From: Candidatus Omnitrophota bacterium
GTDB taxonomy: Bacteria; Omnitrophota; Gorgyraeia; Gygaellales; Profunditerraquicolaceae
Assembly: GCA_043812955.1 (NCBI GenBank)
Contig: JBDRLN010000012.1
Location: 12,749 to 76,748 of the forward strand
DNA length: 64,000 bases
Reading direction: 5' to 3'
Made by a program: the position numbers and the translations under genes. The notes below the pieces were generated by a model that saw nothing but the letters and a program-made list of their open reading frames with translations, was not told the DNA's origin and made no database searches. Of the stretch, positions 1,664 to 61,982 are shown piece after piece. Positions within the stretch are counted from its first letter, which is position 1. Each line of letters begins with the position of its first letter.

Positions 1664-2485
1664 CTAGGTTCCAATTCTAACTGGTTCAAAAATTTGACCC
1701 AGAACCGCCACGGCTGATAAAAAAGCCAGATAGCTGGTTTTGGGGTTATCCGGATGCAATACATTCTCAGTCCGGCAGGAAATTTTGCCTCCATTTGAAT
1801 CAACGGTTATCTGATGTATATTCCTTTTAGTCCCGGGCGAGGCGATTATATTAACTCTTGTGTTAACCTCTCCTATGCCGGCTAGGCTTAATATGGCGGC
1901 AACATTAATATTCTGAGGAAAAAACTTTACCGCTTCTTTAGCGCTGCCTGAGAAAATAAGAGTATCTTTTTTGATCTTGCTTAAATTTATCTTTTTATCT
2001 TCAATATATTTGACTCCTTTAAAAGAAACCGGATTTTTAATCGTAGTCAGGGTAACCCTGTTTATTCCGGAGATACCGGCTGCCTTTAACGCGTCTATTC
2101 CCGAGATAGCTCCACTGGGGATATAAACTTTGGCTTTATTTGTTTTAGCCAGAGCGGATAATTCTTTAAAATTGTTAATTATTCCTCCCACGCTCATAAC
2201 CAACACATCTTTCCTGCTCTTTAAAGCCTCCCTGGAAATTTCCCAGGAGGATTTAGCTGAGGCTGATTCAATGACCAATTTTGAGCGAATGATTAACTGC
2301 TTTAAGGTTTTGGTAATTAAACCATTATCCCTTAGGGCCTGGGCTAACTTTTGGGATTTTTGCGAGTCGATATCAAAAAGGGCGGATAAAACAGCCTGGC
2401 CAGTAAAATTTTTCTTGATCTCTTTGGCTAAAGATGCGCCTATCGCCCCGCACCCCACTATTCCAATCTTCAATTTTGTGCCCAT
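1664..2485 (-). CDS. nadX: L-aspartate dehydrogenase (NadX-like, DUF108 fold)
   Basis: N-terminal Rossmann motif KIGIVGCGAIG; C-terminal FPQNINVAAIL...NPKTSYLA matches NadX signatures (FPRNINVA, NPKTS). 273 aa. Confidence 0.7.
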   Translation of the reverse strand: MGTKLKIGIVGCGAIGASLAKEIKKNFTGQAVLSALFDIDSQKSQKLAQALRDNGLITKTLKQLIIRSKLVIESASAKSSWEISREALKSRKDVLVMSVGGIINNFKELSALAKTNKAKVYIPSGAISGIDALKAAGISGINRVTLTTIKNPVSFKGVKYIEDKKINLSKIKKDTLIFSGSAKEAVKFFPQNINVAAILSLAGIGEVNTRVNIIASPGTKRNIHQITVDSNGGKISCRTENVLHPDNPKTSYLAFLSAVAVLGQIFEPVRIGT

Positions 2486-2504
2486 TTTCTTTCTCTACCT
2501 ATCG

Positions 2505-2565
2505 AAATGGGGTCAGAATTATTTTTTATTTATTTTACTAGTAAAAAATAATTCTGACCCCATTT
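2505..2565. repeat. Perfect 24-bp-stem palindrome (AAATGGGGTCAGAATTATTTTTTA ...13-nt loop... TAAAAAATAATTCTGACCCCATTT) between panC and nadX
   Basis: Read directly from the sequence. Intergenic, no U-run; possible attenuator or bidirectional terminator. Confidence 0.5.
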
Positions 2566-2595
2566 ATCTATTCCTTTACCTTCTATTATTGTAGG

Positions 2596-3444
2596 TTATC
2601 CAATCTTTACTATAATGTTATCAATCAACCTAGTTTTTCCTACAAATGCAGCCAAAGCTATCAATACCTTCCCCTTTAATGCTTTTATTGGTTTTAAATC
2701 TTTTAAATCTACAATAGAAATATACTGCGGACAGATAGTTTTGCTTTGTTTCAATAATTTACGGATTTTATTTATCGCTAAGGCGGAATTACGCTCTCCC
2801 TGCTTAATTAAACACCGGGCTAATTTTAACCCTTGATATAACAAAACTGCCTCTTTTCTCTCCTGTGGGTTTAGATAGATATTGCGCGAACTCATAGCCA
2901 GGCCATCCCGCTCCCGCTTGGTCGGCATAACCTTAACCCTAACCGGGATATTTAAATCTCTCACCATCTTATTTATGGCCAAGGCCTGCTGGCAGTCTTT
3001 TTGGCCAAAATAAGCGCTATCCGGGTGGATTAAATTGAATAACTTGTTTACAACCGTAGCTACTCCCTTAAAATGTCCTGGCCTGAATACCCCGCAAAGT
3101 GAATCAGTTAAACCCAGTACATTAACAAAAGTATTAAAACCATCAGGGTACATATTCTTTAATGACGGAAGGAAAATAAAATCAACCCCCTCTTTTTTGC
3201 ATATTGCTATATCTTTACCAATTGGCCGCGGGTATTGGTTTAAATCTTCCCTAGGCCCGAACTGAATAGGATTGACAAAAATACTGACTATAACTTCCGA
3301 ATTATCTTTACCGGCCTTACGGATCAAGCTAAGATGCCCAGCATGCATTGCCCCCATTGTGGGGACAAAACCAATGGTCCTGCCGCTTTTTTTTAGCTTA
3401 CTGGTTATTTTTTGAATTTCCCGGCTGCTACGGATAATTTTCAT
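2596..3444 (-). CDS. panC: pantoate--beta-alanine ligase
   Basis: GFVPTMGAMHAGHLSLI (HIGH-type motif) and the overall PanC pattern; 282 aa. Confidence 0.9.
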   Translation of the reverse strand: MKIIRSSREIQKITSKLKKSGRTIGFVPTMGAMHAGHLSLIRKAGKDNSEVIVSIFVNPIQFGPREDLNQYPRPIGKDIAICKKEGVDFIFLPSLKNMYPDGFNTFVNVLGLTDSLCGVFRPGHFKGVATVVNKLFNLIHPDSAYFGQKDCQQALAINKMVRDLNIPVRVKVMPTKRERDGLAMSSRNIYLNPQERKEAVLLYQGLKLARCLIKQGERNSALAINKIRKLLKQSKTICPQYISIVDLKDLKPIKALKGKVLIALAAFVGKTRLIDNIIVKIG

Positions 3445-3974
3445 TTATTCCGGCGTTTCATTTTTTTAATTTTTTCTCTACCCCTACCGCTACCTTTACC
3501 TTTACCAATACCTATACCTTTTCTTCCTTTTTTAATATCATTTTTACTTTTGGCAATCAATTTCTTAACAACCCCGGGAGCAATTTCTTTAAACGGCTCT
3601 AAAACAAAATTACGCTCGCAGATCCTTGGATGCGGCAGGCACAGCCCTTCCTCTTTAATACAAATATCCGAATAGGTCAAAATATCCAGATCAATGGTCC
3701 GCGGGGCATTAGGAATAGTGCGCACCCGGCCTAATAAAGATTCTATTTTTTGCAATTCTTGCAACAATTGATAAGGCAGAAGCTCGGTCTCAATCTCAAC
3801 CACTGCATTCAAATATTTCCCTTGCGGCGGACCGCCTTGAGGCTTAGTTTCAATTACCGACGAAATTTTAACTACCCGGGTAGAGGACAAAACCTTGATT
3901 TTTTTTATAGCGATATTGATATAGAATTGTCTTTCGCCCAGATTAGATCCGATAGCGATAAAACTAGTTACCAT
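3441..3974 (-). CDS. folK: 2-amino-4-hydroxy-6-hydroxymethyldihydropteridine pyrophosphokinase (HPPK) with Gly/Lys-rich C-terminal tail
   Basis: AIGSNLG...RTIDLDIL...LPHPR motifs of HPPK. The C-terminal KGRKGIGIGKGKGSGRGREK tail is encoded by a GGTAAA/GGTATA hexamer-repeat tract. Confidence 0.85.
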   Translation of the reverse strand: MVTSFIAIGSNLGERQFYINIAIKKIKVLSSTRVVKISSVIETKPQGGPPQGKYLNAVVEIETELLPYQLLQELQKIESLLGRVRTIPNAPRTIDLDILTYSDICIKEEGLCLPHPRICERNFVLEPFKEIAPGVVKKLIAKSKNDIKKGRKGIGIGKGKGSGRGREKIKKMKRRNK

Positions 3975-5140
3975 ATTTTCTTAAGCCTAATAAGCGCCTC
4001 TGCTATTCTTTCTTTAGGAACAGTAAGTGCAAACCTGATGTAGCCTTCGCCGTATTTACCAAAACCAACTCCGGGCGTAGCTACTATATCAGCCTTGGCC
4101 AGCAATTCCCGGCTAAAATCAATCGAACATATTTTCTTAGGTATCCTGGACCAGACATAAAAGGTTGCTTTGGGCTTTTTAATATCCCAACCTAAAGAAT
4201 TCAATCCCTCTACCAGGCTGTCGCGTCTATTTTGGTAAATTTCCGACATTTTCTTAATCTGTCCGACTGATCCTTCCAGGGCCGCAACTGCGGCAACTTG
4301 AAGAGCGGAAAATATCCCAGAATCAATATTAGACTTAACCTTAGCTAAAGCAGCAACTAAATCCTTGTTCCCGCAGGCCCAGCCCACCCGCCAGCCAGTC
4401 ATATTGCAGGTCTTGGATAATGAATGAAATTCAATGCCTACTTCCTTTGCCCCGTCAACCTCCAGAAAACTTGGAGGCTTAAATCCATCATATGACATTT
4501 CAGAATAAGCCAAATCAGAAACCACGATAAGCTTGTTCTTCCGGGCGAATTTAACGATACTCTTATAAAAATTAATATCGCAGACCGCGCCGGTAGGATT
4601 ATTAGGGTAATTAATATAGATCACTCTGGCTTTTTTAAGCACGCCTGCCGGAATTGCTTTGAGGTCAATCAAAAAATCATTCTTTTCTAATAAAGGCATT
4701 AAGTGGACCTTGCCCCCGGCAAAAATAGTTCCCCCTTTATAAGGAGGGTAACACGGATCAGGCACCAGAGTATAATCTCCCGGATTTATAATCCCTAAGG
4801 GAAAATGAGCAATACCTTCTTTTGAGCCGATTAAAGGAAGTATCTCAGTATTGATATCCAGCGTGACATTAAACCGGGAATTATACCATTGGGAAATTGC
4901 CTGGCGGAACACCGGCAGGCCCTGATCCAAGGCATAACGATGATTAGCTGGCTCAAGTGCTGCCCTATCTAAAGCCTGAATAATATAATCCGGCGTAGGT
5001 AAATCCGGGTCTCCGATGCCTAAGTCTATGATATCCCTTCCTTCAGAGCGGGCCAGGCGCTTAGCCTTATCTAACTCCAGGAATAAATAAGGCGGCAATG
5101 CCTGCAACCTTTTGGACAAAACAAAGGTGTTCTCTTTCAT
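3968..5140 (-). CDS. dapL: class I aminotransferase, most likely LL-diaminopimelate aminotransferase (DapL)
   Basis: PLP class-I aminotransferase (IIDLGIGDPDLPTP, SLSKT Lys region). The N-terminal LPPYLFLELDKAK resembles the DapL YLF motif. The gene is embedded in dapB-dapA-dapF-lysA with no dapD/dapE present. Confidence 0.65.
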   Translation of the reverse strand: MKENTFVLSKRLQALPPYLFLELDKAKRLARSEGRDIIDLGIGDPDLPTPDYIIQALDRAALEPANHRYALDQGLPVFRQAISQWYNSRFNVTLDINTEILPLIGSKEGIAHFPLGIINPGDYTLVPDPCYPPYKGGTIFAGGKVHLMPLLEKNDFLIDLKAIPAGVLKKARVIYINYPNNPTGAVCDINFYKSIVKFARKNKLIVVSDLAYSEMSYDGFKPPSFLEVDGAKEVGIEFHSLSKTCNMTGWRVGWACGNKDLVAALAKVKSNIDSGIFSALQVAAVAALEGSVGQIKKMSEIYQNRRDSLVEGLNSLGWDIKKPKATFYVWSRIPKKICSIDFSRELLAKADIVATPGVGFGKYGEGYIRFALTVPKERIAEALIRLKKIW

Positions 5141-5158
5141 TGATATTTTCCCTCTAAT

Positions 5159-5234
5159 CCCTGCCTGTCTGGCAGGCAGGCGGCAGCAAACCTACCTACT
5201 ACCTAACCCCTATCTGCTATATGCTACCTGCTAC
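5159..5234. repeat. GC-rich palindrome CCTGCCTGTCTGGCAGGCAGG plus CCTACCTAC-type short repeats (REP-like element) in the dapL upstream region
   Basis: Palindrome read directly; family members at 17745-17764, 25486-25505, 43467-43486 and a related one at 42970-42995. Confidence 0.6.
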
Positions 5235-5948
5235 CTACTGCCTTAATACATCCTGCATTGAATAAATCCCTGCGGGCTTATCAATAACCCATCTAGCTGC
5301 TTTCAACGCCCCTAAGGCAAAAAGATCGCGGGAATGAGCCTGATGCTTAATTTCTATGCGCTCAGAATTTCCGCAGAAAATAATTGTATGGTCGCCGACT
5401 ATATCACCTAATCTAACCGAATGAACCGGTATTTCTTTCCCGGTAGATTCAACTAATACCTGATGGAACTTTTTAGCTGTTCCTGAAGGCGCGTCTTTTT
5501 TAGCCTTATGGTGAGCCTCCACTATTTCAATGGCGTACTCCGGACCCAGCCTTTTAGCAATCTCAGGAAGCAGGCTGAATAAAACATTTACCCCCACCGC
5601 CATATTCGGCGAAAATACTACCGGAACAATCTTAGAGATCTCCTGAATTTTATTGATCTCCTGGTCATTAAAACCAGTAGTGCCCAGGACTAAGGCCTTT
5701 TTATAACGGGCTACGTAATCCAGATTAACAACGCTTGCCTCAGGCATGGTAAAATCCACAAATACATCCACTAAAAATAACCCGTCGGGTGAGGATGATA
5801 TTTTAATCTTACCCAGTTCCTTTCCGATTTCCGGTATACCCTTGCGCTCCAGGGCCAAGGTTATTTCAAAATCCTTGTTATTTCTCGCCAGGCTAAAAAT
5901 ACGTTTTCCCATTTTTCCGCACACACCGGCAATTCCTAATTTAATCAT
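5235..5948 (-). CDS. dapB: 4-hydroxy-tetrahydrodipicolinate reductase
   Basis: MIKLGIAGVCGKMGK Rossmann N-terminus and DapB-type C-terminal domain; 237 aa. Confidence 0.85.
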   Translation of the reverse strand: MIKLGIAGVCGKMGKRIFSLARNNKDFEITLALERKGIPEIGKELGKIKISSSPDGLFLVDVFVDFTMPEASVVNLDYVARYKKALVLGTTGFNDQEINKIQEISKIVPVVFSPNMAVGVNVLFSLLPEIAKRLGPEYAIEIVEAHHKAKKDAPSGTAKKFHQVLVESTGKEIPVHSVRLGDIVGDHTIIFCGNSERIEIKHQAHSRDLFALGALKAARWVIDKPAGIYSMQDVLRQ

Positions 5949-6066
5949 TTATTTCTCCCGAATTGATAAACAATAATATTATGTTTATATTACTAGGTAC
6001 AGGTATAGGAAAAGGTAAAGAAAAACTTTTCATTCTATACCTATACCTTTACCTCTACCTTCTCTA

Positions 6067-6981
6067 TTAATTTTTCAGTAGCCCGTAATCCTTTAAGGCC
6101 TGAGTTAATTTCTCTAAATTTTCCGGCAACATTTTACTCATCGGAAGCCTTAAATCAGGCTCGCACATACCCAATAACCCCATAGCGGTTTTAACCGGTA
6201 TCGGATTAGTCTCGATAAACATAGCCTTGATCAAAGGCAATAACCTATAATGGATCTCTTGGGCTTTTTTAATACTGCCTTTTTCAAATTCACTAACCAT
6301 CTGGGCTACATCTTTGGGGACAATATTGGCCACAACCGAAATAACCCCCGTTCCCCCTATTGCTAAAATAGGCAGGGTTAAACTGTCGTCTCCGGAAATC
6401 AAATCAAAATCTTTCCCACAGAGCGACTTAATCCTAGACATCTGGTCCAGGCTCCCGGAGGCTTCTTTCACTGCTTTTATATTCTGGCAATCTTTAGCCA
6501 ATCTGGCTATAGTCTCAGGCTCAATATTAACTCCTGTACGAGAAGCAATATTATAAAGAATTATCGGTATATCTACTGATTCGGCAATGGCTTTAAAATG
6601 TTCATAGAGCCCTTTTTGCGTAGGCCGGTTGTAATATGGCGATACCTGCAAAGAAGCGTCTGCCCCAGAAAGGGCAGCATGTTTAGTCAACATTATAGCC
6701 TCGGCAGTTGAATTTGAGCCGGTACCGGCAATAACCGGGACTCTTTTATTCGCCTGTTCAATAGCAATTTTAATAACCTGCTCATGCTCATCGAAAGTAA
6801 GGGTAGCCGATTCTCCGGTTGTGCCGCAGGGGACAATCCCGGAAACACCATTTTTGATCTGGAATTCAATAAGGTCCCTGAATTTTTTTTCATCAACCAC
6901 AAGTTTTCCGCCGGAGGCGGATCCGCCGCGATTTGTGGCGGAAAAAGGCGTTACTATTGCGGTAATCGAGCCTTTAAACAT
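6067..6981 (-). CDS. dapA: 4-hydroxy-tetrahydrodipicolinate synthase
   Basis: ITAIVTPF...GIVPCGTTGESATLT DapA/DHDPS signature; 304 aa. Confidence 0.9.
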   Translation of the reverse strand: MFKGSITAIVTPFSATNRGGSASGGKLVVDEKKFRDLIEFQIKNGVSGIVPCGTTGESATLTFDEHEQVIKIAIEQANKRVPVIAGTGSNSTAEAIMLTKHAALSGADASLQVSPYYNRPTQKGLYEHFKAIAESVDIPIILYNIASRTGVNIEPETIARLAKDCQNIKAVKEASGSLDQMSRIKSLCGKDFDLISGDDSLTLPILAIGGTGVISVVANIVPKDVAQMVSEFEKGSIKKAQEIHYRLLPLIKAMFIETNPIPVKTAMGLLGMCEPDLRLPMSKMLPENLEKLTQALKDYGLLKN

Positions 6982-7705
6982 AGTATACCCCCTTATAAAC
7001 TATACTGGCCTTTCCCTCCAGCCAGACATCCTTAAAATTGTCCCCTTCTTTCATATAATAAACCTTTAAGACTTCACCGCCTTTAGTATGTACATTGATC
7101 TTGCGATAACCGCTAACCCCTAACCGATAACCGGTAATTAAGGCGGAGGCTGCCGAGCCGGTGCCACAGGCCAAAGTCTCATCCTCAACGCCTCTTTCAT
7201 AAGTCCTGATCTTTAGGGAATTATCATTTACTATCTCTACAAAATTAACATTGGTCCCGGCAGGTGAAAATTGCAAATCATTTCGGATAAGCCTTCCTAA
7301 ATTAAATACGTCAATTTTATCCAAGCCTTCCACAAAAATAACAGCCTGGGGCACACCGGTATTTATAAAATTAATTTTAAGCTTCCTGCTATTTACCTTG
7401 ATAGGAATATCCAATCTAAAATCCTTAGGCTCAGTTAATTTTATTCTCACGCTATCTTTATTTACTACCGACTCGATTATCCCGGCTTTAGTTTGAATTA
7501 TTATCTTTTGCCGTGGGCTATGCCTGCCTGCCGCCTGCCGGCTAAAATACAATGCTGCGCAGCGAGCGCCATTTCCGCACATTTCAGCTTCCGAACCATC
7601 AGCATTAAAAATCCTCATTCTTACATCCCGGCCTTTTGATTTTTCCAAAATCAACAGACCGTCAGCCCCGATACCATATTTCCTGTCGCAGACTTCTCTG
7701 GCCAA
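6974..7705 (-). CDS. dapF: diaminopimelate epimerase, main C-terminal body; the true N-terminus (7737-7798, MKEKLEFTKIVASGNDFVVIE) lies in a different frame across a 7-bp tandem repeat
   Basis: FNADGSEAEMCGNGARC and ACGTGSAA catalytic Cys motifs. The upstream ATG at 7796-7798 encodes the canonical DapF N-terminus (GNDFVV) but is out of frame by the (TTTTGAC)x3 repeat at 7713-7736. Confidence 0.8.
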   Translation of the reverse strand: MAREVCDRKYGIGADGLLILEKSKGRDVRMRIFNADGSEAEMCGNGARCAALYFSRQAAGRHSPRQKIIIQTKAGIIESVVNKDSVRIKLTEPKDFRLDIPIKVNSRKLKINFINTGVPQAVIFVEGLDKIDVFNLGRLIRNDLQFSPAGTNVNFVEIVNDNSLKIRTYERGVEDETLACGTGSAASALITGYRLGVSGYRKINVHTKGGEVLKVYYMKEGDNFKDVWLEGKASIVYKGVYYV

Positions 7706-7712
7706 AGCTTTG

Positions 7713-7736
7713 AAATTTTTGACTTTTGACTTTTGA
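7713..7736. repeat. heptanucleotide tandem repeat (TTTTGAC)x3 inside the dapF N-terminal coding region causing an apparent frameshift
   Basis: atttttgac ttttgac ttttgac read directly. With 1 or 4 copies the DapF frame would be continuous: GNDFVVIEVKNFKALAREVCDRKYGIGADG. Confidence 0.8.
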
Positions 7737-7796
7737 CTTCGATAACGACAAAGTCGTTACCGGATGCCACTATTTTAGTAAATTCTAATTTTTCCT

Positions 7797-9047
7797 TCAT
7801 ATAATTTCCTTCATTATCAGATCCTGATAAGTATCTCTTCTTCTTATAACCCTAGATTTGTTTTTCCTGACCATTACTTCCGCAGCCTTCCGGCGGGAAT
7901 TATAGTTACTGGACATGCTAAAACCGTAAGCCCCGGCGCTCATTACCGCCAAGTAATCCCCGGCTTTTACACAAGGCAAAAGCCTGTCTTTGGCCAAGAA
8001 ATCACCGCTTTCACATATCGGCCCTACCACATCAACTTTTTCAACTTTACCTATACCTTTACCTATACCTTCCACTGGTAATATATTATGGTAGGCCTCA
8101 TATAGCGCTGGACGAATTAAATCATTCATCCCGGCATCAACTATGATAAATTTTTTTACCGGGGTGCCTTTAATATATAAAACTTTAGTAACTAGTATCC
8201 CGGCATTTCCAACAATAAACCTGCCCGGCTCAAAAATTATCTTCAGATTAATTTTCTTTAAAATGGGCAAAACCTTTGCGGCGAATTCCTGGGCCGTCTG
8301 AGGGGTCTCTTGATCATAAATAATCCCTAATCCTCCGCCCATATTCAAGAATTCTAACTTTACCCCGTTTCTTTGCAGGGCACTAATAAATGAAATAACC
8401 TTTTTTAAGGCTTGGACAAAAGGAGCTCCTTTAGTTATCTGCGAACCTATGTGCATATGTAAACCGCAGATATTTATATTTAAAAGTTTGCGCCTAAGCG
8501 ATAAAATCTTAGTGGCGTTATTTAAATCAATACCGAATTTATTGGTTATCTTGCCGGTGGTGATAAAATGATGCGTATTGGCCTCAACATCAGGATTAAT
8601 CCTAATCGCGACCTTGGTAATTTTATTTAATTTTTTAGCCACCCGGTTAATATTCTCCAGTTCAGGCAAAGATTCAACATTAAAAAGTAAAATTCCTTTT
8701 TTTATCGCTTCTTCAATTTCTCTGTCGGTTTTGCCTACCGAGGCGTATACTATTCTCTCCGGCGGGCATTTGGCCTTAAGCGCCCGGAACAGCTCTCCGC
8801 CGGAAACAATATCCAACCCGGCCCCTTTATCTACTAAGGCTTTTAATATAGCTAAATTTGAATTTGCTTTTACCGAATAGCAGATAATAGGCTTAATTTC
8901 CCGAAAAGCAGTTTTTAATTTTAAGAAATGGTCGATAAGAGTTTTATAGCTATAAACATAAAGCGGGGTGCCAAACTTTTCAGCCAAGTCCTTAACGTTT
9001 ACATTCTCGCAAAACAGTTTATTTTCTTGGTATTTAAATTCGTGCAT
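7797..9047 (-). CDS. lysA: diaminopimelate decarboxylase
   Basis: PLP fold-III decarboxylase: YSVKAN, HMHIGSQ, EPGRF, CESGD motifs; 416 aa. Confidence 0.9.
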   Translation of the reverse strand: MHEFKYQENKLFCENVNVKDLAEKFGTPLYVYSYKTLIDHFLKLKTAFREIKPIICYSVKANSNLAILKALVDKGAGLDIVSGGELFRALKAKCPPERIVYASVGKTDREIEEAIKKGILLFNVESLPELENINRVAKKLNKITKVAIRINPDVEANTHHFITTGKITNKFGIDLNNATKILSLRRKLLNINICGLHMHIGSQITKGAPFVQALKKVISFISALQRNGVKLEFLNMGGGLGIIYDQETPQTAQEFAAKVLPILKKINLKIIFEPGRFIVGNAGILVTKVLYIKGTPVKKFIIVDAGMNDLIRPALYEAYHNILPVEGIGKGIGKVEKVDVVGPICESGDFLAKDRLLPCVKAGDYLAVMSAGAYGFSMSSNYNSRRKAAEVMVRKNKSRVIRRRDTYQDLIMKEII

Positions 9048-10407: not shown

Positions 10408-10426
10408 CTCTTCTCCTAAAGTTTTT

Positions 10427-10456
10427 CTTTACCTTTACCTTTACCTTTACCTTTAC
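10427..10456. repeat. hexanucleotide tandem repeat (CTTTAC)x5 immediately upstream of the argH ribosome-binding site
   Basis: ctttacctttacctttacctttacctttac read directly, between the argG stop and argH start. Confidence 0.8.
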
Positions 10457-11638
10457 CTATCTTTGATATGGCATGCCCCAGATCTTAATAAAGCCTTCCG
10501 CTAATCTCTGGTCAAACTTATCTTCTTTTCCGTAAGTGCTCAATTCTTTTTTATAAAGCGAGTGCGCTGATTTTCGGGAAACCGGCGCGCAAACCCCTTT
10601 GGTCAATTTCAGCTTTATAGAACCGCTCACATATTTCTGAGTAGAATCAATAAAATCATCTAAAGCCTGCTTTAATGGAGAATACCATAATCCATAATAA
10701 ACCAATTCCGAATATTTTAAGCCGATAATTTCCTTAAAATGAGCTGTCTCCCGGTCCAAGACCAGACTCTCTAATTCCCGGTGAGCAATATGTAGTATAG
10801 TAGCAGCAGGCGCTTCATAGATCTCCCGGGATTTAATACCGACCAGCCTATTTTCAACCAAATCCTGTCTGCCCACTCCATACGTTCCGCCAACGACATT
10901 TAAATGACTTATTAAGTCTTTTAGCTTGTAAATCTTTCCGTCTATTTTCTTAGGTTTACCTTTTTCAAAATAAACCTCAATATATTTAGGATAGGTTGTG
11001 CCTCCTGCGGGGCTTTTAGTAATCAAATATGCGTCTTCAGGAGGTTCCTGCTCTAAATTCTCCAATATTCCGGCCTCAATGCTTACTCCCCAGATGTTCC
11101 GATCAATGCTATAAGGTTTTTTCTTAGTTACATCAATAGGTATATTTTTGGCTTTAGCATACTCTATTTCTTCTTCCCGAGACTTGAATTCCCATTCCCT
11201 GACCGGAGCCAAGATCTTCAGTTTCGAATCCAATATTCCGGCAGTAACTTCAAGCCTGACCTGATCATTTCCTTTTCCAGTACATCCATGCGCGATGCTA
11301 TCTGCCTTCTCCTTATGGGCTATCTCAACCAGATATTTAGCAATTAAAGGCCGGCCTAAAGCTGTAGCCAAAAGGTATTTGCCTTCATAAATAGCATTGG
11401 CTTTTAAAGCTGGCATGATAAAATCCTCAACAAATTCATCCTGTAGATCCTTGATATAAACCTTAGAAGCTCCGGCTGCCAAAGCCCTCTCCTCGATCGC
11501 CTCAAAACTCTCGCCTTGGCCCAGGCCCTGCCCTAAATCCGCAACAAAACAGATAACATCATAGCCTTTATCCTTTAACCATCTGACTATACAAGAAGTA
11601 TCTAAACCGCCGGAGTAAGCCAATACTACTTTATTCAT
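10457..11638 (-). CDS. argG: argininosuccinate synthase
   Basis: VVLAYSGGLDTS PP-loop and the ArgG pattern; 393 aa. Confidence 0.9.
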   Translation of the reverse strand: MNKVVLAYSGGLDTSCIVRWLKDKGYDVICFVADLGQGLGQGESFEAIEERALAAGASKVYIKDLQDEFVEDFIMPALKANAIYEGKYLLATALGRPLIAKYLVEIAHKEKADSIAHGCTGKGNDQVRLEVTAGILDSKLKILAPVREWEFKSREEEIEYAKAKNIPIDVTKKKPYSIDRNIWGVSIEAGILENLEQEPPEDAYLITKSPAGGTTYPKYIEVYFEKGKPKKIDGKIYKLKDLISHLNVVGGTYGVGRQDLVENRLVGIKSREIYEAPAATILHIAHRELESLVLDRETAHFKEIIGLKYSELVYYGLWYSPLKQALDDFIDSTQKYVSGSIKLKLTKGVCAPVSRKSAHSLYKKELSTYGKEDKFDQRLAEGFIKIWGMPYQR

Positions 11639-11660: not shown

Positions 11661-11850
11661 TGGTATTGGGGACAGGTCCCTATGTGTATTGGGGACAGGT
11701 CCCTATGCTATAACACTATATAAAACAATAACTTCCAATTAGTCACTTTGCACTTTTATAGAATATAATTTATAATAAAAAGTGAAATGTGCCTTAATCT
11801 AACTAACATATATCCCAATAAGTTAGACCAAGGGGACCAGTCCCCCCCCT
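11661..11850. promoter_or_regulatory. argG upstream region with two 21-bp direct repeats (TATTGGGGACAGGTCCCTATG) each containing the palindrome GGGACAGGTCCC, plus a third palindrome GGGGACCAGTCCCC; candidate operator sites
   Basis: Repeats read directly at 11663-11710 and 11824-11842. Confidence 0.4.
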
Positions 11851-12257: not shown

Positions 12258-13182
12258 TCCTCCATTTTAGTTTTAGTAATTTAATCAGTACTGCCTTTTG
12301 AATATGCATCCTGTTTTCCGCCTGATCAAATACTATAGAATTAGGACTATCCATGATCTCACTGGTAATTTCCAGGCCCCGGTGCGCTGGCAGACAATGC
12401 ATAATCAATGTCTTTTTTTTAGCTAACCTGACTAATTTACTATTCAGCTGAAATTCCTGGAAAATTTTCTGCCTTTTCTTAGTTTCTGACTCCTGGCCCA
12501 TACTTGCCCACACATCAGTATATATAACATCGGATCCCTTAACTGCTTCCCGCGGATTTAAAAAAAGCTTTATCTTAGATCCGGTCCTAGCGCCGGCATT
12601 TTTTGCCTCCCTAACAATAGCTGGATCAGGGGCATATCCTTTAGGCGTAGCGATATTCAAATTTAAACCTACCTTAGAAGCAGCATGCAGCAAAGAATGA
12701 CAAACGTTGTTTCCATCTCCTATATAAACTAAGGTTATACCTTTAAATTTAGAAAACTTCTCTTTAATAGTATAAATATCAGCTAACCCCTGACAAGGAT
12801 GGATAAGGTCAGACAGCCCATTAATTACCGGAACACTTGCATACCTAGCCATATCCAATAAACTCTTCTGGGCAAATGTCCTAAGGACTATCGCATCAAC
12901 ATACCGGCTTAGAGTCCTGGCCACATCCGGTATACTCTCCCTTACCCCTAATTTAATATGTTCAGGCCCGAGATATATCGAATTCCCTCCTAATTCATAC
13001 ATTCCTACCTGAAAAGAAACATAAGTTCTATTAGACGGCTTTTCAAATATCAAAGCCAGGGTTTTACCCTTAAGCGAATCATTAAATTTAGCTGGATCTT
13101 TTTTAAGCTCTGTGGTTAGTTCCAATATTTCATTAACCTCTTTGGTACTTAAATCGCTAATACAAATCAGGTCTTTTTTCAC
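12244..13182 (-). CDS. argF: ornithine carbamoyltransferase (GTG start)
   Basis: Carbamoyltransferase fold with the HCLPAHRGLE motif; the carbamoyl-phosphate motif appears as SNRTY. GTG start overlaps the TGA of the upstream mini-ORF. Confidence 0.85.
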   Translation of the reverse strand: MKKDLICISDLSTKEVNEILELTTELKKDPAKFNDSLKGKTLALIFEKPSNRTYVSFQVGMYELGGNSIYLGPEHIKLGVRESIPDVARTLSRYVDAIVLRTFAQKSLLDMARYASVPVINGLSDLIHPCQGLADIYTIKEKFSKFKGITLVYIGDGNNVCHSLLHAASKVGLNLNIATPKGYAPDPAIVREAKNAGARTGSKIKLFLNPREAVKGSDVIYTDVWASMGQESETKKRQKIFQEFQLNSKLVRLAKKKTLIMHCLPAHRGLEITSEIMDSPNSIVFDQAENRMHIQKAVLIKLLKLKWRNGEY

Positions 13183-16517: not shown

Positions 16518-17543
16518 TCATTTTAACCCAGTCGTTTCGGACAAGCCATACATAATATTCATATTCTGGAGCGCCTGGCCGGAAGCCCCTTTGAGAAGAT
16601 TGTCAATTACCGCGATAATTATTATCTTATCGCCATCGTCTTTAACCGCGATATCGCAGAAATTCGTCCCTACCACATCTTTGAGCTTAGGAAAAACCCC
16701 TGCTTCTTTAATTCTTACGAAAGGTTCGTTTTTATAGAATTTCCTATATAGCTCTATTAAACTTTGCGCTTTGAGCTTTACGCTTTGAGCTTTATTAATA
16801 TATATAGTTTCCAAGATCCCTCTATTTAAAGGCAGAAGATGCGGCACAAAAGTAACCTCGATTTTCTTACCCGAAATCCGGGATAATTCCTGGTTGATTT
16901 CGGGTTTATGCTGATGGTTATTAATCTTGTAGGCTTTAAAATCCTCATTAATCTCCGAAAAAAGGAAATCCTCAGCGATTTTTCTGCCTGCGCCAGTTAC
17001 CCCGGATTTAGCGTCGATGATTATTGAGCCGCCTTCAATTAAATTCACGGCTAGAACAGGAGCTAAGGCTAAAATTGCCGCGGTCGGATAACACCCGGGG
17101 TTGGCGATTAATTTTGCTTTTTTAATCTTTATCCGGTAAATTTCAGGCAAGCCATAAACCGCTTCTTTTAGATATGTTTTATCTTTATGCTTAGTCTTAT
17201 AAAATTCTTCATAAACTGAAGTGCTTTTTAGCCTGTAATCAGCGCTTAAATCAATGACTTTCTTTCCGGCGGATAATAATCTCGGGACAACCTCCATAGA
17301 AACTGTATGCGGTAATGCCAAAAAAACCAGGTCGCATTTATCAGCAATTTCTTTTATATCAATCTCCTTGCAGACCAGGTCAAGTTTTTGTTTAAATTTA
17401 GGAAATATATCCGATATTATCCTGGGTTTATCTATTTTGGCATAGAGCCCGGATATCCTGACGTTAGGATGTTTTAAAAGCATCTCGATCAAGATTTCGC
17501 CGGCATAACCGGTTGCACCCACAATTCCCGCGTTTATCAACAT
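16518..17543 (-). CDS. argC: N-acetyl-gamma-glutamyl-phosphate reductase
   Basis: GIVGATGYAGE N-terminus and active-site Cys motif ANPGCYPTA; 341 aa. Confidence 0.9.
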   Translation of the reverse strand: MLINAGIVGATGYAGEILIEMLLKHPNVRISGLYAKIDKPRIISDIFPKFKQKLDLVCKEIDIKEIADKCDLVFLALPHTVSMEVVPRLLSAGKKVIDLSADYRLKSTSVYEEFYKTKHKDKTYLKEAVYGLPEIYRIKIKKAKLIANPGCYPTAAILALAPVLAVNLIEGGSIIIDAKSGVTGAGRKIAEDFLFSEINEDFKAYKINNHQHKPEINQELSRISGKKIEVTFVPHLLPLNRGILETIYINKAQSVKLKAQSLIELYRKFYKNEPFVRIKEAGVFPKLKDVVGTNFCDIAVKDDGDKIIIIAVIDNLLKGASGQALQNMNIMYGLSETTGLK

Positions 17544-17710: not shown

Positions 17711-17764
17711 AAATCTACCTGCAACCTATCCTACCTACTATCTACCTGCCTACCGGCAGGCAGG
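17711..17764. repeat. REP-like element: CTACCT short repeats plus palindrome CCTGCCTACCGGCAGGCAGG
   Basis: Read directly; same family as 5159-5234, 25486-25505, 43467-43486 and 58901-59037. Confidence 0.6.
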
Positions 17765-22275: not shown

Positions 22276-22382
22276 TCCACCCTACCCATTCCACCCCGTA
22301 GGTGGGCTCCACCCCGTAGGTGGGCTCCACCTACGGGGTGGACATGAAGGTTTAATATAGCCTAATTTAGCTTATTTGTCAA
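22276..22382 (-). promoter_or_regulatory. pgk promoter region: consensus promoter (TTGACA-17-TATATT) followed by three tandem 15-bp sites CCACCCCGTAGGTGG separated by GCT (third copy inverted); putative repressor operator array
   Basis: Sites at 22291-22305, 22309-22323 and 22327-22341 with a degenerate fourth upstream. The same motif occurs at 55600-55632 (gap) and 63695-63727 (DegT unit). Confidence 0.6.
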
Positions 22383-25485: not shown

Positions 25486-25505
25486 CCTGCCTGCCGGCAG
25501 GCAGG
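25486..25505. repeat. perfect 20-bp palindrome CCTGCCTGCCGGCAGGCAGG immediately upstream of the lipoprotein SD
   Basis: Minus strand reads CCTGCCTGCCGGCAGGCAGGGAGGTGAATGTGATG. Confidence 0.7.
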
Positions 25506-43466: not shown

Positions 43467-43486
43467 CCTGCCTGCCGACAGGCAGG
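43467..43486. repeat. 20-bp palindrome CCTGCCTGCCGACAGGCAGG immediately upstream of the SD of the YeaQ-family gene
   Basis: Minus strand: CCTGCCTGTCGGCAGGCAGGGAGGAAACGAACATG. Confidence 0.7.
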
Positions 43487-60888: not shown

Positions 60889-61982
60889 AATTTACAAATC
60901 TCCTGCGCTGCATCAGGCTTCCTGATCTTTTGAATATTACCGCGCAAAAGATCAACCCTCTGGCGGTTATTTTTCAAATCCATAACTATATCCCGGATAT
61001 CCTCGAGTCTCCTGGCCTGCCAGGCGCATCCGCTCCTTACCAATACTTCGGAATTCCCGCTCTCCTGCCCGGGTATACCGTCAATAAATATCAAAGGAAT
61101 CTGCATTACCAGGCTTTCGGAAATACTTAAACCCCCGGGCTTAGTAATCAAAAGGCTGGCTTTAGACATCAACTCCGGCATCTGGTCAGTAAAACCCAGC
61201 AAAGTTACATTAGAATAGTTTTTCTTTTTTAACCGCTTAAACAAAAATTTATTTCTACCGCAGACTATAGTCATTTTAACTTCATTATGCAGCATATCCG
61301 CTATATCTTCCATCAGCATAAAGCCCAATGAGCCGGTAGCCAGCAGAACCCTGAATTCCCCTTCTGCCGCGCTATTTTCTTTACCCATATCTCTACCTAT
61401 ACCTATACCTATACCTCTACCTTTACCTAGATCGACAAATTGCTTATCTACCGGTATGCCTAAAACCTTGATCTTGGCCTCATCCACTCCCCGGCGCAAT
61501 AAATCCCGGACAGTATAATCACAGGCTACAACATAATTATCGCATTTAGAAGTTATCCAAATAGGATGGGCCCGGAAATCGGTAATTACAGTTACTAACC
61601 GCGACGAGATCTTATTCTTAAGTTTAAGGCACGAGGCTATAAAGGGGGGCAGAAAATGAGTGGATAAGATAACGTCCGGATTTTCCCGGATAAGATAATT
61701 TACAAACCTCTGGCTGTGTACCAGAGAAATAAATTGAAAAATACCGCGGACAAAAGTATAAGAGCTTAAATAATAAAGGGCCATCCAGATAAATTTCAGA
61801 TAGATGGCCAGGATACTATAACCCACGCTATAGAAATAAGTAAAGACCGGATTATTAAATTGTAATATATCCAAAACTTCAACTTTAACATCCGGATATT
61901 TATCCTTAAAGCCGGCTGACAAAGCAATGGCTGCGGCGCGATGGCCTCCGCCTGCCGAAGCATGGACGATTAGTATTTTCAT
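60873..61982 (-). CDS. MGDG-synthase-like / UgtP-type diacylglycerol glycosyltransferase (GT28) with an internal hexamer-repeat-encoded Gly/Ile linker
   Basis: N-terminal ILIVHASAGGGHRAAAIAL (MGDG_synth motif) and C-terminal GT28 domain (LITKPGGLSISESL). An internal GKGRGIGIGIGRDMGK segment is encoded by (GGTATA)n at 61385-61430. Confidence 0.75.
   Translation of the reverse strand: MKILIVHASAGGGHRAAAIALSAGFKDKYPDVKVEVLDILQFNNPVFTYFYSVGYSILAIYLKFIWMALYYLSSYTFVRGIFQFISLVHSQRFVNYLIRENPDVILSTHFLPPFIASCLKLKNKISSRLVTVITDFRAHPIWITSKCDNYVVACDYTVRDLLRRGVDEAKIKVLGIPVDKQFVDLGKGRGIGIGIGRDMGKENSAAEGEFRVLLATGSLGFMLMEDIADMLHNEVKMTIVCGRNKFLFKRLKKKNYSNVTLLGFTDQMPELMSKASLLITKPGGLSISESLVMQIPLIFIDGIPGQESGNSEVLVRSGCAWQARRLEDIRDIVMDLKNNRQRVDLLRGNIQKIRKPDAAQEICKLCMLK

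Follow-up and report, generated by a model that had tools for sequence, protein, structure and literature searches.

A dapF frame broken at a native heptamer array in an Omnitrophota contig, and in-frame arrays at fixed sites of dapF in its relatives

Why should a gene of lysine biosynthesis be cut in two at a short repeat that is apparently part of the gene itself? This question is raised by dapF, the gene for diaminopimelate epimerase, in a 64,000-nt stretch of DNA (hereafter the window) from a metagenome-assembled genome of a Candidatus Omnitrophota bacterium (contig JBDRLN010000012.1 of assembly GCA_043812955.1, forward-strand positions 12,749 to 76,748; all coordinates below are those of the window). 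As sequenced, the dapF frame breaks at a tandem array of a 7-nt unit, here called site 1. Related genomes have in-frame arrays at the same place, and that of the window appears to be one unit short.

The dapF frame breaks at a heptamer array

The gene lies on the minus strand and is split across two frames at an exact (GTCAAAA)x3 array (7737-7717). Its ATG (7800-7798) overlaps the lysA stop (ATGA), and the strand then reads ATG AAG GAA ... GGT AAC GAC TTT GTC GTT ATC GAA, followed by GTCAAAA GTCAAAA GTCAAAA A TTTC. The first 21 codons (MKEKLEFTKIVASGNDFVVIE; 7738..7800, minus strand) encode beta-strands 1 and 2 and the GNDF motif. Their frame continues as MKEKLEFTKIVASGNDFVVIEVKSQKSK and then as nonsense up to a TGA at 7653-7651 (7651..7653, minus strand), which with three units closes it after 49 codons both in the list of open reading frames (ORFs) and in conceptual translation (49-residue ORF, 7651..7800). 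The body of DapF, with both catalytic cysteines (MCGNG and ACGTG), is in the other frame (6974..7716, minus strand) and appears in the list as a 243-residue ORF that begins at a TTG (6974..7705; 243 codons at 7705-6974). This frame is open only from 7756, and the TTG at 7705 is the sole start codon ahead of the body. No one ORF consequently runs unbroken from the N-terminal GNDF strand through the body, since GNDF (7800-7738) and body (7716-6974) are in different frames. In NCBI, the body is nevertheless listed from the TTG as the 243-residue diaminopimelate epimerase MFH1397039.1, on an 83,992-bp contig, with neither a pseudogene nor a frameshift flag.

Conceptual translations with different numbers of GTCAAAA units give one ORF of 270, 277 or 284 residues with 1, 4 or 7 units respectively, and do not restore the dapF frame with 0, 2, 3, 5 or 6; one inserted base, equivalent to a -1 slip, also restores it. 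Site 1 thus has one of the features of a contingency locus, a non-triplet repeat whose unit number sets the reading frame. Tandem Repeats Finder (TRF) places the array at 7717-7739 on the minus strand (period 7, 3.3 copies, 100% match), that is, the three exact units with partial units on each side. The two-unit 14-mer occurs twice against an expectation of 0.06, and no period-7 array at the TRF threshold of this one arose in 20 block-wise mononucleotide shuffles (1-kb blocks) of the window. A sequence-only reading of the same DNA had already noticed that the frame breaks at the heptamer array, that the N-terminus with GNDF is in another frame than the body, that the ORF list has the body alone, starting at a TTG, and that one or four copies would restore the frame and three do not; the minus-strand read, the ORFs and the conceptual translations agree on every one of these points. 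The places that it described are also the right ones, with corrected coordinates: the ATG is at 7800-7798 instead of 7796-7798 and the array at 7737-7717 instead of 7713-7736.

The split gene is a member of the DapF family

Judged by its sequence, the split gene is dapF, a family member by descent and evidently not an intact one. With the DapF model TIGR00652 (curated cut-off 114.65 bits; the family is also described by PF01678), the reconstruction with four units scores 243.6 bits, that with three units plus an extra A 242.4, that with one unit 236.1 and the body alone 217.8. Once repaired, the protein also finds solved structures of DapF in the PDB (5ha4 at E = 4.5e-40), and the two cysteines expected of a DapF, C77 (MCGNG) and C214 (ACGTG), are invariant in an alignment of 30 sequences (28 relatives and the four-unit and one-unit reconstructions). 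In an AlphaFold2 model of the repaired protein (mean predicted local distance difference test score, pLDDT, 88.5; predicted template modelling score, pTM, 0.87) they directly precede helices 78-90 and 215-229, and the part absent from the 243-residue product comprises strands 4-12 and 15-22 along with the GNDF motif. The gene order, lysA-dapF-dapA-dapB-dapL within an arginine-lysine biosynthesis cluster, is also that expected; together with the TIGR00652 score and the structure match, it confirms the earlier naming of the gene as dapF.

Site 1 is a native loop array that appears one unit short

The best non-self DapF homologues are 60-75% identical to the window protein and all belong to the Omnitrophota. 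At the position of the array they have the residues EVRSQKSEVRNLKDLA, EVKGQRSKVKSLTDLA or EAKSQKPKVKNLSILA. The four-unit reconstruction, EVKSQKSKVKNFKALA, is equal in length to EVRSQKSEVRNLKDLA and EVKGQRSKVKSLTDLA and aligns without a gap to most close relatives; the one-unit form has a loop 7 residues shorter than theirs. We have also compared the DNA of ~20 close relatives, obtained from a metagenome scan and from per-protein look-ups. In these, site 1 consists of ~4.3 heptamer units (30-31 nt) encoding a 10-codon surface loop, in frame in every case, for example GAAGTCA with 4.4 copies in L162, CAGAAGT with 5.0 in L165, GTCAAAG with 3.9 in L081, AAGCCAA with 3.4 in L163, CCGGACA with 4.3 in L161, AGAGACC with 4.4 in L166 and CCGTCAC with 4.4 in L168. 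While the unit varies in this way, the in-frame length at site 1 is constant between species.

The window sequence plus one unit equals that of L162 codon for codon, the shared read being GAA GTC A[A/G]A AGT CA[A/G] AAG TCA [A/G]AA GTC A[A/G]A AAT TT. Because one added unit aligns the window base for base with its relatives, the lesion is, on this alignment, best described as a native, loop-encoding array that has lost exactly one of its 7-nt units, and the four-unit form would be the functional state of dapF. The idea that the repeat interrupts dapF is thus to be abandoned: the array is conserved in the lineage and builds a surface loop in the relatives too. The one-copy repair proposed along with it is in frame and its translation, run against TIGR00652, clears the 114.65-bit cut-off at 236.1 bits, but it is not the best form, having a lower score than four units (243.6 bits) and a loop 7 residues below that of the relatives; we have therefore dropped it.

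In-frame arrays recur at fixed sites across the clade

Site 1 is not alone. The dapF genes of the clade have arrays at three fixed sites (residues 21-31, 87-99 and 220-232), and most of the close-relative genes fetched carry period-7 arrays there (a few of period 8 or 14), all in frame and several of them 100% perfect. In the window, site 2 is a short-repeat tract of CGGCAGG / GGCA (7521..7540, minus strand; peptide SRQAAGRHS) and lies where the helix after catalytic Cys77 ends; the units of the relatives are 7, 8 or 14 nt long there, with such examples as GCAAAGC x4.6 and GTCACAAG x4.0. Site 3 is a heptamer array of ~4.4-4.9 imperfect units (7104..7137, minus strand; peptide TGYRLGVSGYR) and is likewise placed where a helix ends, the one after catalytic Cys214; its counterparts include ATTACCG x5.1 in L081, ACTTACA x4.4 in L165 and TATATGC x4.3 in L166. 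In the AlphaFold2 model, site 1 is the loop that joins beta-strand 2 to helix 1; sites 2 and 3 form the distal ends of the helices starting at C77 and C214, so that these two should be surface-exposed and remote from the active site. The periodicity can be seen in the proteins as well: among 120 homologues, recurrence of identical residues at a lag of seven clusters at the sites, with 38 runs around residue 20 and 45 around residue 220, against at most 11 at these places for lags of 5, 6, 8 and 9. A separate palindromic motif, GGCAGGCAGG, lies in frame inside site 2 of the window, and in L082 it forms an insertion that splits the site-1 array.

Two further enzymes of the cluster have coding arrays. 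In lysA, an in-frame 12-nt array (GGTATAGGTAAA x2.2; 8045..8071, minus strand; peptide GIGKGIGK) encodes a loop between YHNILPL and EKVDVVGPICES, whose unit is 12 nt in the window and L168 and 7 nt in L162, L081, L164 and L167. In argC, a 7/14-nt array of CTCAAAG / CGTAAAG (16762..16794, minus strand; peptide KAQSVKLKAQS) has the same position in the window and L168. The sequence-only reading had thus seen site 1 and missed four arrays, those of dapF at 7521-7540 and 7104-7137 and one each in lysA and argC. Arrays are absent from the more distant dapF genes compared, and a scan of a genome collection gave, among the matches listed, mostly distant dapF (at most 60% identity) without them.

The units of any one genome are nearly identical to one another; those of different genomes diverge at one to several positions (GTCAAAA, GTCAAAG, GTCAGAA, GCCAAAA, ACCAGAG), a pattern which suggests that units have been gained and lost repeatedly. 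The unit family is particular to each site, [GA][TC]CA[AG]A[AG] at site 1 and, at site 3, ACNNNTT in several relatives with perfect arrays (L081, L165). The window as a whole has 21 arrays with a TRF score of at least 36 against 3.35 in shuffles, and 2 of period 7 against 0.0; tandem 7-nt units are thus above chance, as in the heptanucleotide class of long simple sequence repeats (SSRs) of Mrazek et al. That the arrays are real, orthologous and evolving in concert is well supported by independent assemblies; on the sequences, this evolution would involve recurrent unit gain and loss. Our search of the literature found nothing on such repeats in the Omnitrophota. Elsewhere in bacteria heptamer repeats are over-represented, mostly in intergenic DNA (PMC4679880, PMC4692102), and mutable non-triplet repeats, the most mutable type of sequence, are normally purged from coding regions (PMC3315296).

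Neighbouring genes and unusual dapF loci in relatives

On the minus strand around dapF, all intact, are lysA (7797..9047), for the diaminopimelate decarboxylase, which needs meso-diaminopimelate (meso-DAP) from DapF; dapA (6067..6981), whose start overlaps the dapF end by 8 nt; dapB (5235..5948); and dapL (3968..5140), for the LL-diaminopimelate aminotransferase, whose product, LL-DAP, is the DapF substrate. These four, like argC and argH, have full-length family matches. With dapL beside dapF, the organism would use the DapL route to lysine, which needs DapF for the step from LL-DAP to meso-DAP. The 12 neighbouring arginine and lysine genes that we compared with relatives are all intact and of equal length to their counterparts; the window also has long intact ORFs of 979, 915, 914 and 766 residues, and no further frameshift is visible among its ~60 genes. 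In dapA, a 12-residue in-frame insertion (SATNRGGSASGG; ~6908-6929, codons 14-25) has no equivalent in L162, L168, L165 or L161; its DNA is palindromic (GGCGGATCCGCC...), and L169 has a shorter insertion at the equivalent place.

Some relatives have peculiar dapF loci of their own. In the metagenome contig L087 (1-420), a FolC-like ORF breaks off in mid-gene; next come a 44-nt repeat, CCGCCAAAATTTGGCGAGACCTCGCCAGCAAAACTGGCGGT, present twice, and the dapF body, which begins just after site 1. We considered it as a second frameshifted dapF, its match starting at residue 33, and rejected it, as the junction is not a unit slip: either a dispersed repeat has led the assembly into a chimera, or the DNA is truly rearranged at the site-1 loop. 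The DapF clusters also have truncated members (P0129, P0132, P0139 and P0148). Two metagenome-assembled genomes, L169 (284-620) and L170 (146-420), have near-identical flanks and ~45 nt at site 1 that are completely different, L170 having a TGGCGGGT-type array there and L169 an in-frame insertion of ~72 nt in the dapF N-terminus, bordered by ATTAAT. Hypermutation was considered and dropped in this case: divergence is raised over ~120 nt around site 1, and a recombination mosaic, which the sequences suggest, is the simpler explanation. Finally, L163 (ENA ERZ25039473 contig_11412; 1860-6321) has argH, lysA and dapA each in several ORFs beside a dapF that is whole; it resembles a noisy long-read assembly and is unfit for counting natural frameshifts.

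What the three-unit array may represent

Since the neighbouring genes are intact and dapF has no clear decay, the event would be recent, reversible or artefactual. At 107 dapF columns conserved at 90% or more, the window gene has 5 deviations against a median of 3; as many or more are found in 25 of the 120 homologues, and the test of relaxed selection on dapF with this set was not significant. One substitution deserves mention. At codon 154 of the repaired DapF (NTGVPQAV), the histidine of the GxPH motif is a glutamine (H154Q), the only deviation at columns conserved in at least 97% of the homologues; it may be of no consequence, or it may mark the onset of relaxed constraint. The three explanations first offered for this locus, an artefact, a slipped-strand switch or a recent pseudogene, are all still alive; the earlier interpretation as a whole finds partial support.

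The reading that we favour, and to which we give about an even chance, is that the three-unit array is a real slippage allele with dapF OFF. The working state would have ~4.3 units (30 nt, 10 codons), forming a microsatellite that the clade has kept at this loop. Loss of one 7-nt unit would break the frame after codon 28; ribosomes that start at the ATG would then make a 49-residue peptide, the 243-codon body would be left without a proper start and the gene would be OFF as sequenced. The origin would be strand slippage during replication in the organism, a process that would also homogenise the units of each genome. The loss would then be a recent one, and regain of one unit would reverse it. 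We infer that the three-unit allele exists in cells, that it arose by slippage and that the gene product is absent; judging from the structural model, the truncated 243-residue product should be inactive. Several considerations weigh against this reading. It is unlikely a priori that a lethal frameshift would be the consensus of a natural population when the DapL pathway needs DapF. Out-of-frame arrays were found in none of the ~25 relatives examined, and repeats at site 1 do cause assembly trouble (L087). The lack of clear relaxed selection on dapF fits an artefact as well as a recent event, and the species is found only once in the protein collection, where its dapF, lysA and dapA are singleton clusters.

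An assembly or sequencing artefact is a serious contender, which we would place somewhat short of probable. The true genome would then have four units and an intact dapF, one unit having been dropped during contig building or polishing, either by a cycle shortcut in a de Bruijn graph (small k, low coverage) or by contraction of a short tandem repeat in long reads. A deficit of exactly one unit is what a graph shortcut would give. The intact remainder of dapF and of its 12 neighbours, the lack of excess substitutions at conserved dapF columns and the expectation that dapF should be essential given the adjacent DapL pathway all point the same way, as do the apparently chimeric contig that repeats at site 1 produced in L087 and the existence in the clade of noisy assemblies such as L163, full of split genes. 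However, a perfect period-7 array of 30 nt should cycle in the graph (30 -> 23 nt shortcut) only at k <= 23, and final contigs would normally come from larger k. The window contig, moreover, preserves perfect arrays of 32, 42 and 45 nt, the first of which, (CTTTAC)x5.3, is longer than the minimal path at k = 21; there is no other frameshift among ~60 genes, and 0 of ~40 arrays in the assemblies of relatives have collapsed out of frame.

Could three units nevertheless yield a full-length DapF through programmed recoding, by a -1 ribosomal slip of tRNA-Lys on TCA AAA A (7722-7716) or by transcriptional slippage in the A-rich repeat? The shift needed is indeed -1, equivalent to one inserted base, an A AAA A stretch lies inside the 105-nt overlap of the two frames, and the product, EVKSQKSKNFKALA..., scores 242.4 bits on TIGR00652. 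Yet there is no X XXY YYZ heptamer among the zero-frame codons GTC AAA AGT CAA AAG TCA AAA ATT TCA AAG, which offer the single-tRNA A AAA A option only, and the downstream RNA is ordinary (7745-7640 folds with -21.3 kcal/mol; against shuffles, z = -0.89). The whole window has no match to an Rfam family, and the longest A run is 5, transcriptional slippage needing runs far longer than this. The product would have a loop two residues below the family norm, and every relative examined encodes dapF in one frame, so the frameshift is not conserved. On the slippery site, RNA, Rfam and conservation evidence we have rejected programmed frameshifting; recoding in general seems to us very improbable. 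Much the same can be said of a long-standing pseudogene, that is, of a dapF decaying in a lineage with a host- or prey-dependent lifestyle and no need for its own meso-DAP. The Omnitrophota have been proposed to include host-dependent nanobacteria (PMC10066038), and H154Q, in a motif column so strongly conserved, would also suit such decay. But there is a single lesion, the catalytic cysteines and all invariant columns are kept, the five conserved-column deviations are within the normal range, and lysA, dapA, dapB and dapL are intact and full length, which is unexpected for an abandoned pathway. The gene thus has neither the several lesions nor the relaxed constraint of a decaying pseudogene, and we regard this explanation as highly unlikely.

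Another possibility, implied by the NCBI record, is that translation from TTG 7705 yields a real and active enzyme of 243 residues: it is annotated as a normal protein (MFH1397039.1), and the body passes the TIGR00652 cut-off (217.8 against 114.65 bits). Such a protein would, however, be without profile positions 1-30, the two N-terminal beta-strands, half of helix 1 and the invariant GNDF; almost every homologue listed extends over the N-terminus. The TTG has no Shine-Dalgarno sequence ahead of it, and the missing N-terminus is perfectly encoded just upstream in the other frame, with its ATG coupled to the lysA stop; we find this explanation barely credible. A bolder proposal than the slippage allele itself is that the arrays are heritable, reversible ON/OFF switches for metabolic phase variation, the three-unit dapF being an OFF state caught in nature. 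This we consider rather unlikely; if true, switch arrays would suit a host- or prey-dependent life.

Other repeats in the window

The window is also rich in repeats of other kinds. Hexamer arrays of AGGTAA / AGGTAT occupy several intergenic spacers on the gene strand (10426-10458, 6034-6060, 3493-3519 and 61396-61428), and others are found at 5995-6015 on the opposite strand and inside lysA at 8044-8070. One example reads TAG (GTAAAG)x5, then AGGAG, then the argH ATG. The hexamer pattern AGGTAWAGGTAWAGG occurs 19 times in the window against 0.07 expected. The dapA-dapB spacer has such arrays in both orientations, and these could pair as a hairpin. The motif GGCAGGCAGG, often a perfect palindrome, occurs 6 times against 0.08 expected, with sites at 5171-5180, 7523-7532, 17755-17764, 25486-25505 and 43467-43476; in relatives it is found in dapF site 1 of L082 and at 17613-17636 of L168. 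At 25486-25505 it forms the palindrome CCTGCCTGCCGGCAGGCAGG, closely followed by a GGAGG and a start codon. Finally, there are two perfect intergenic tandem duplications, each on a palindrome (11663-11707 and 22290-22331), one of 23 nt x2 with GGGACCTGTCCCC and the other of 18 nt x2.3 with CCCACCTACGGGGTGG; similar GGGGACAGTCCCC-type repeats are intergenic in L162 (4274-4305 and 12420-12458).

Significance and comparison with known systems

In practical terms, the public 243-residue "diaminopimelate epimerase" MFH1397039.1 would be the 3' part of a frameshifted gene, and the capacity of the organism for meso-DAP and lysine would hinge on one 7-nt unit alone. For the present, the frameshift by itself is of modest interest. 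The more unusual result is the clade-wide occurrence of coding heptamer arrays at fixed enzyme loops; it is backed by independent assemblies and merits a systematic survey. Non-triplet repeats persist here at equivalent loops of essential enzymes across species whose proteins are 60-75% identical, and they offer a natural system for the study of array turnover rate, frame maintenance and reversible loss of biosynthetic genes in uncultured and possibly host-dependent bacteria.

How does this compare with what is known? With -1 frameshifting of the dnaX type, dapF shares two overlapping frames that a -1 shift in an A-rich stretch would join; it differs in having no canonical slippery heptamer, stimulatory structure or conserved frameshift. 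The heptamer SSRs known from bacteria, such as the tandem heptamers of cyanobacteria, GGGNATC in Xanthomonas and Nostoc and TAACTGA in the Beggiatoaceae, offer another comparison: here too the repeats have a period of 7, short arrays are far more frequent than chance would give and many of the arrays in the window are intergenic. Polymerase slippage has been proposed as their origin (summarised in PMC4679880). Four is the preferred number of units in the Xanthomonas and Nostoc heptamers (PMC4692102), a preference that dapF site 1 shares. The units here are not G-rich, so G-quadruplexes do not explain the preference; a 10-codon loop is simply what four units amount to. Moreover, the known heptamer SSRs are mostly intergenic, under-represented in coding DNA and made of one genome-wide unit each, whereas these arrays sit inside conserved enzymes at fixed loops, with a unit family of their own at each site.

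A further parallel is with the slipped-strand SSR contingency loci of Haemophilus and Neisseria, among them the tetranucleotides of lic1 and mod, the CTCTT of opa and the 7-bp repeats of hmw1A/hmw2A. As in these, a non-triplet repeat near the 5' end of dapF sets the frame by its unit number, and a single unit would switch the gene, in principle reversibly; Lin and Kussell have tied the enrichment of SSRs near N-termini to phase variation (PMC3315296). Unlike such loci, dapF encodes a housekeeping biosynthetic enzyme and not a surface or restriction-modification function, and its site 1 has only 3-4 units and is known here from one assembly. Equally unlike them, a single gene carries three arrays, and their positions are orthologous across species that are only 60-75% identical in protein.

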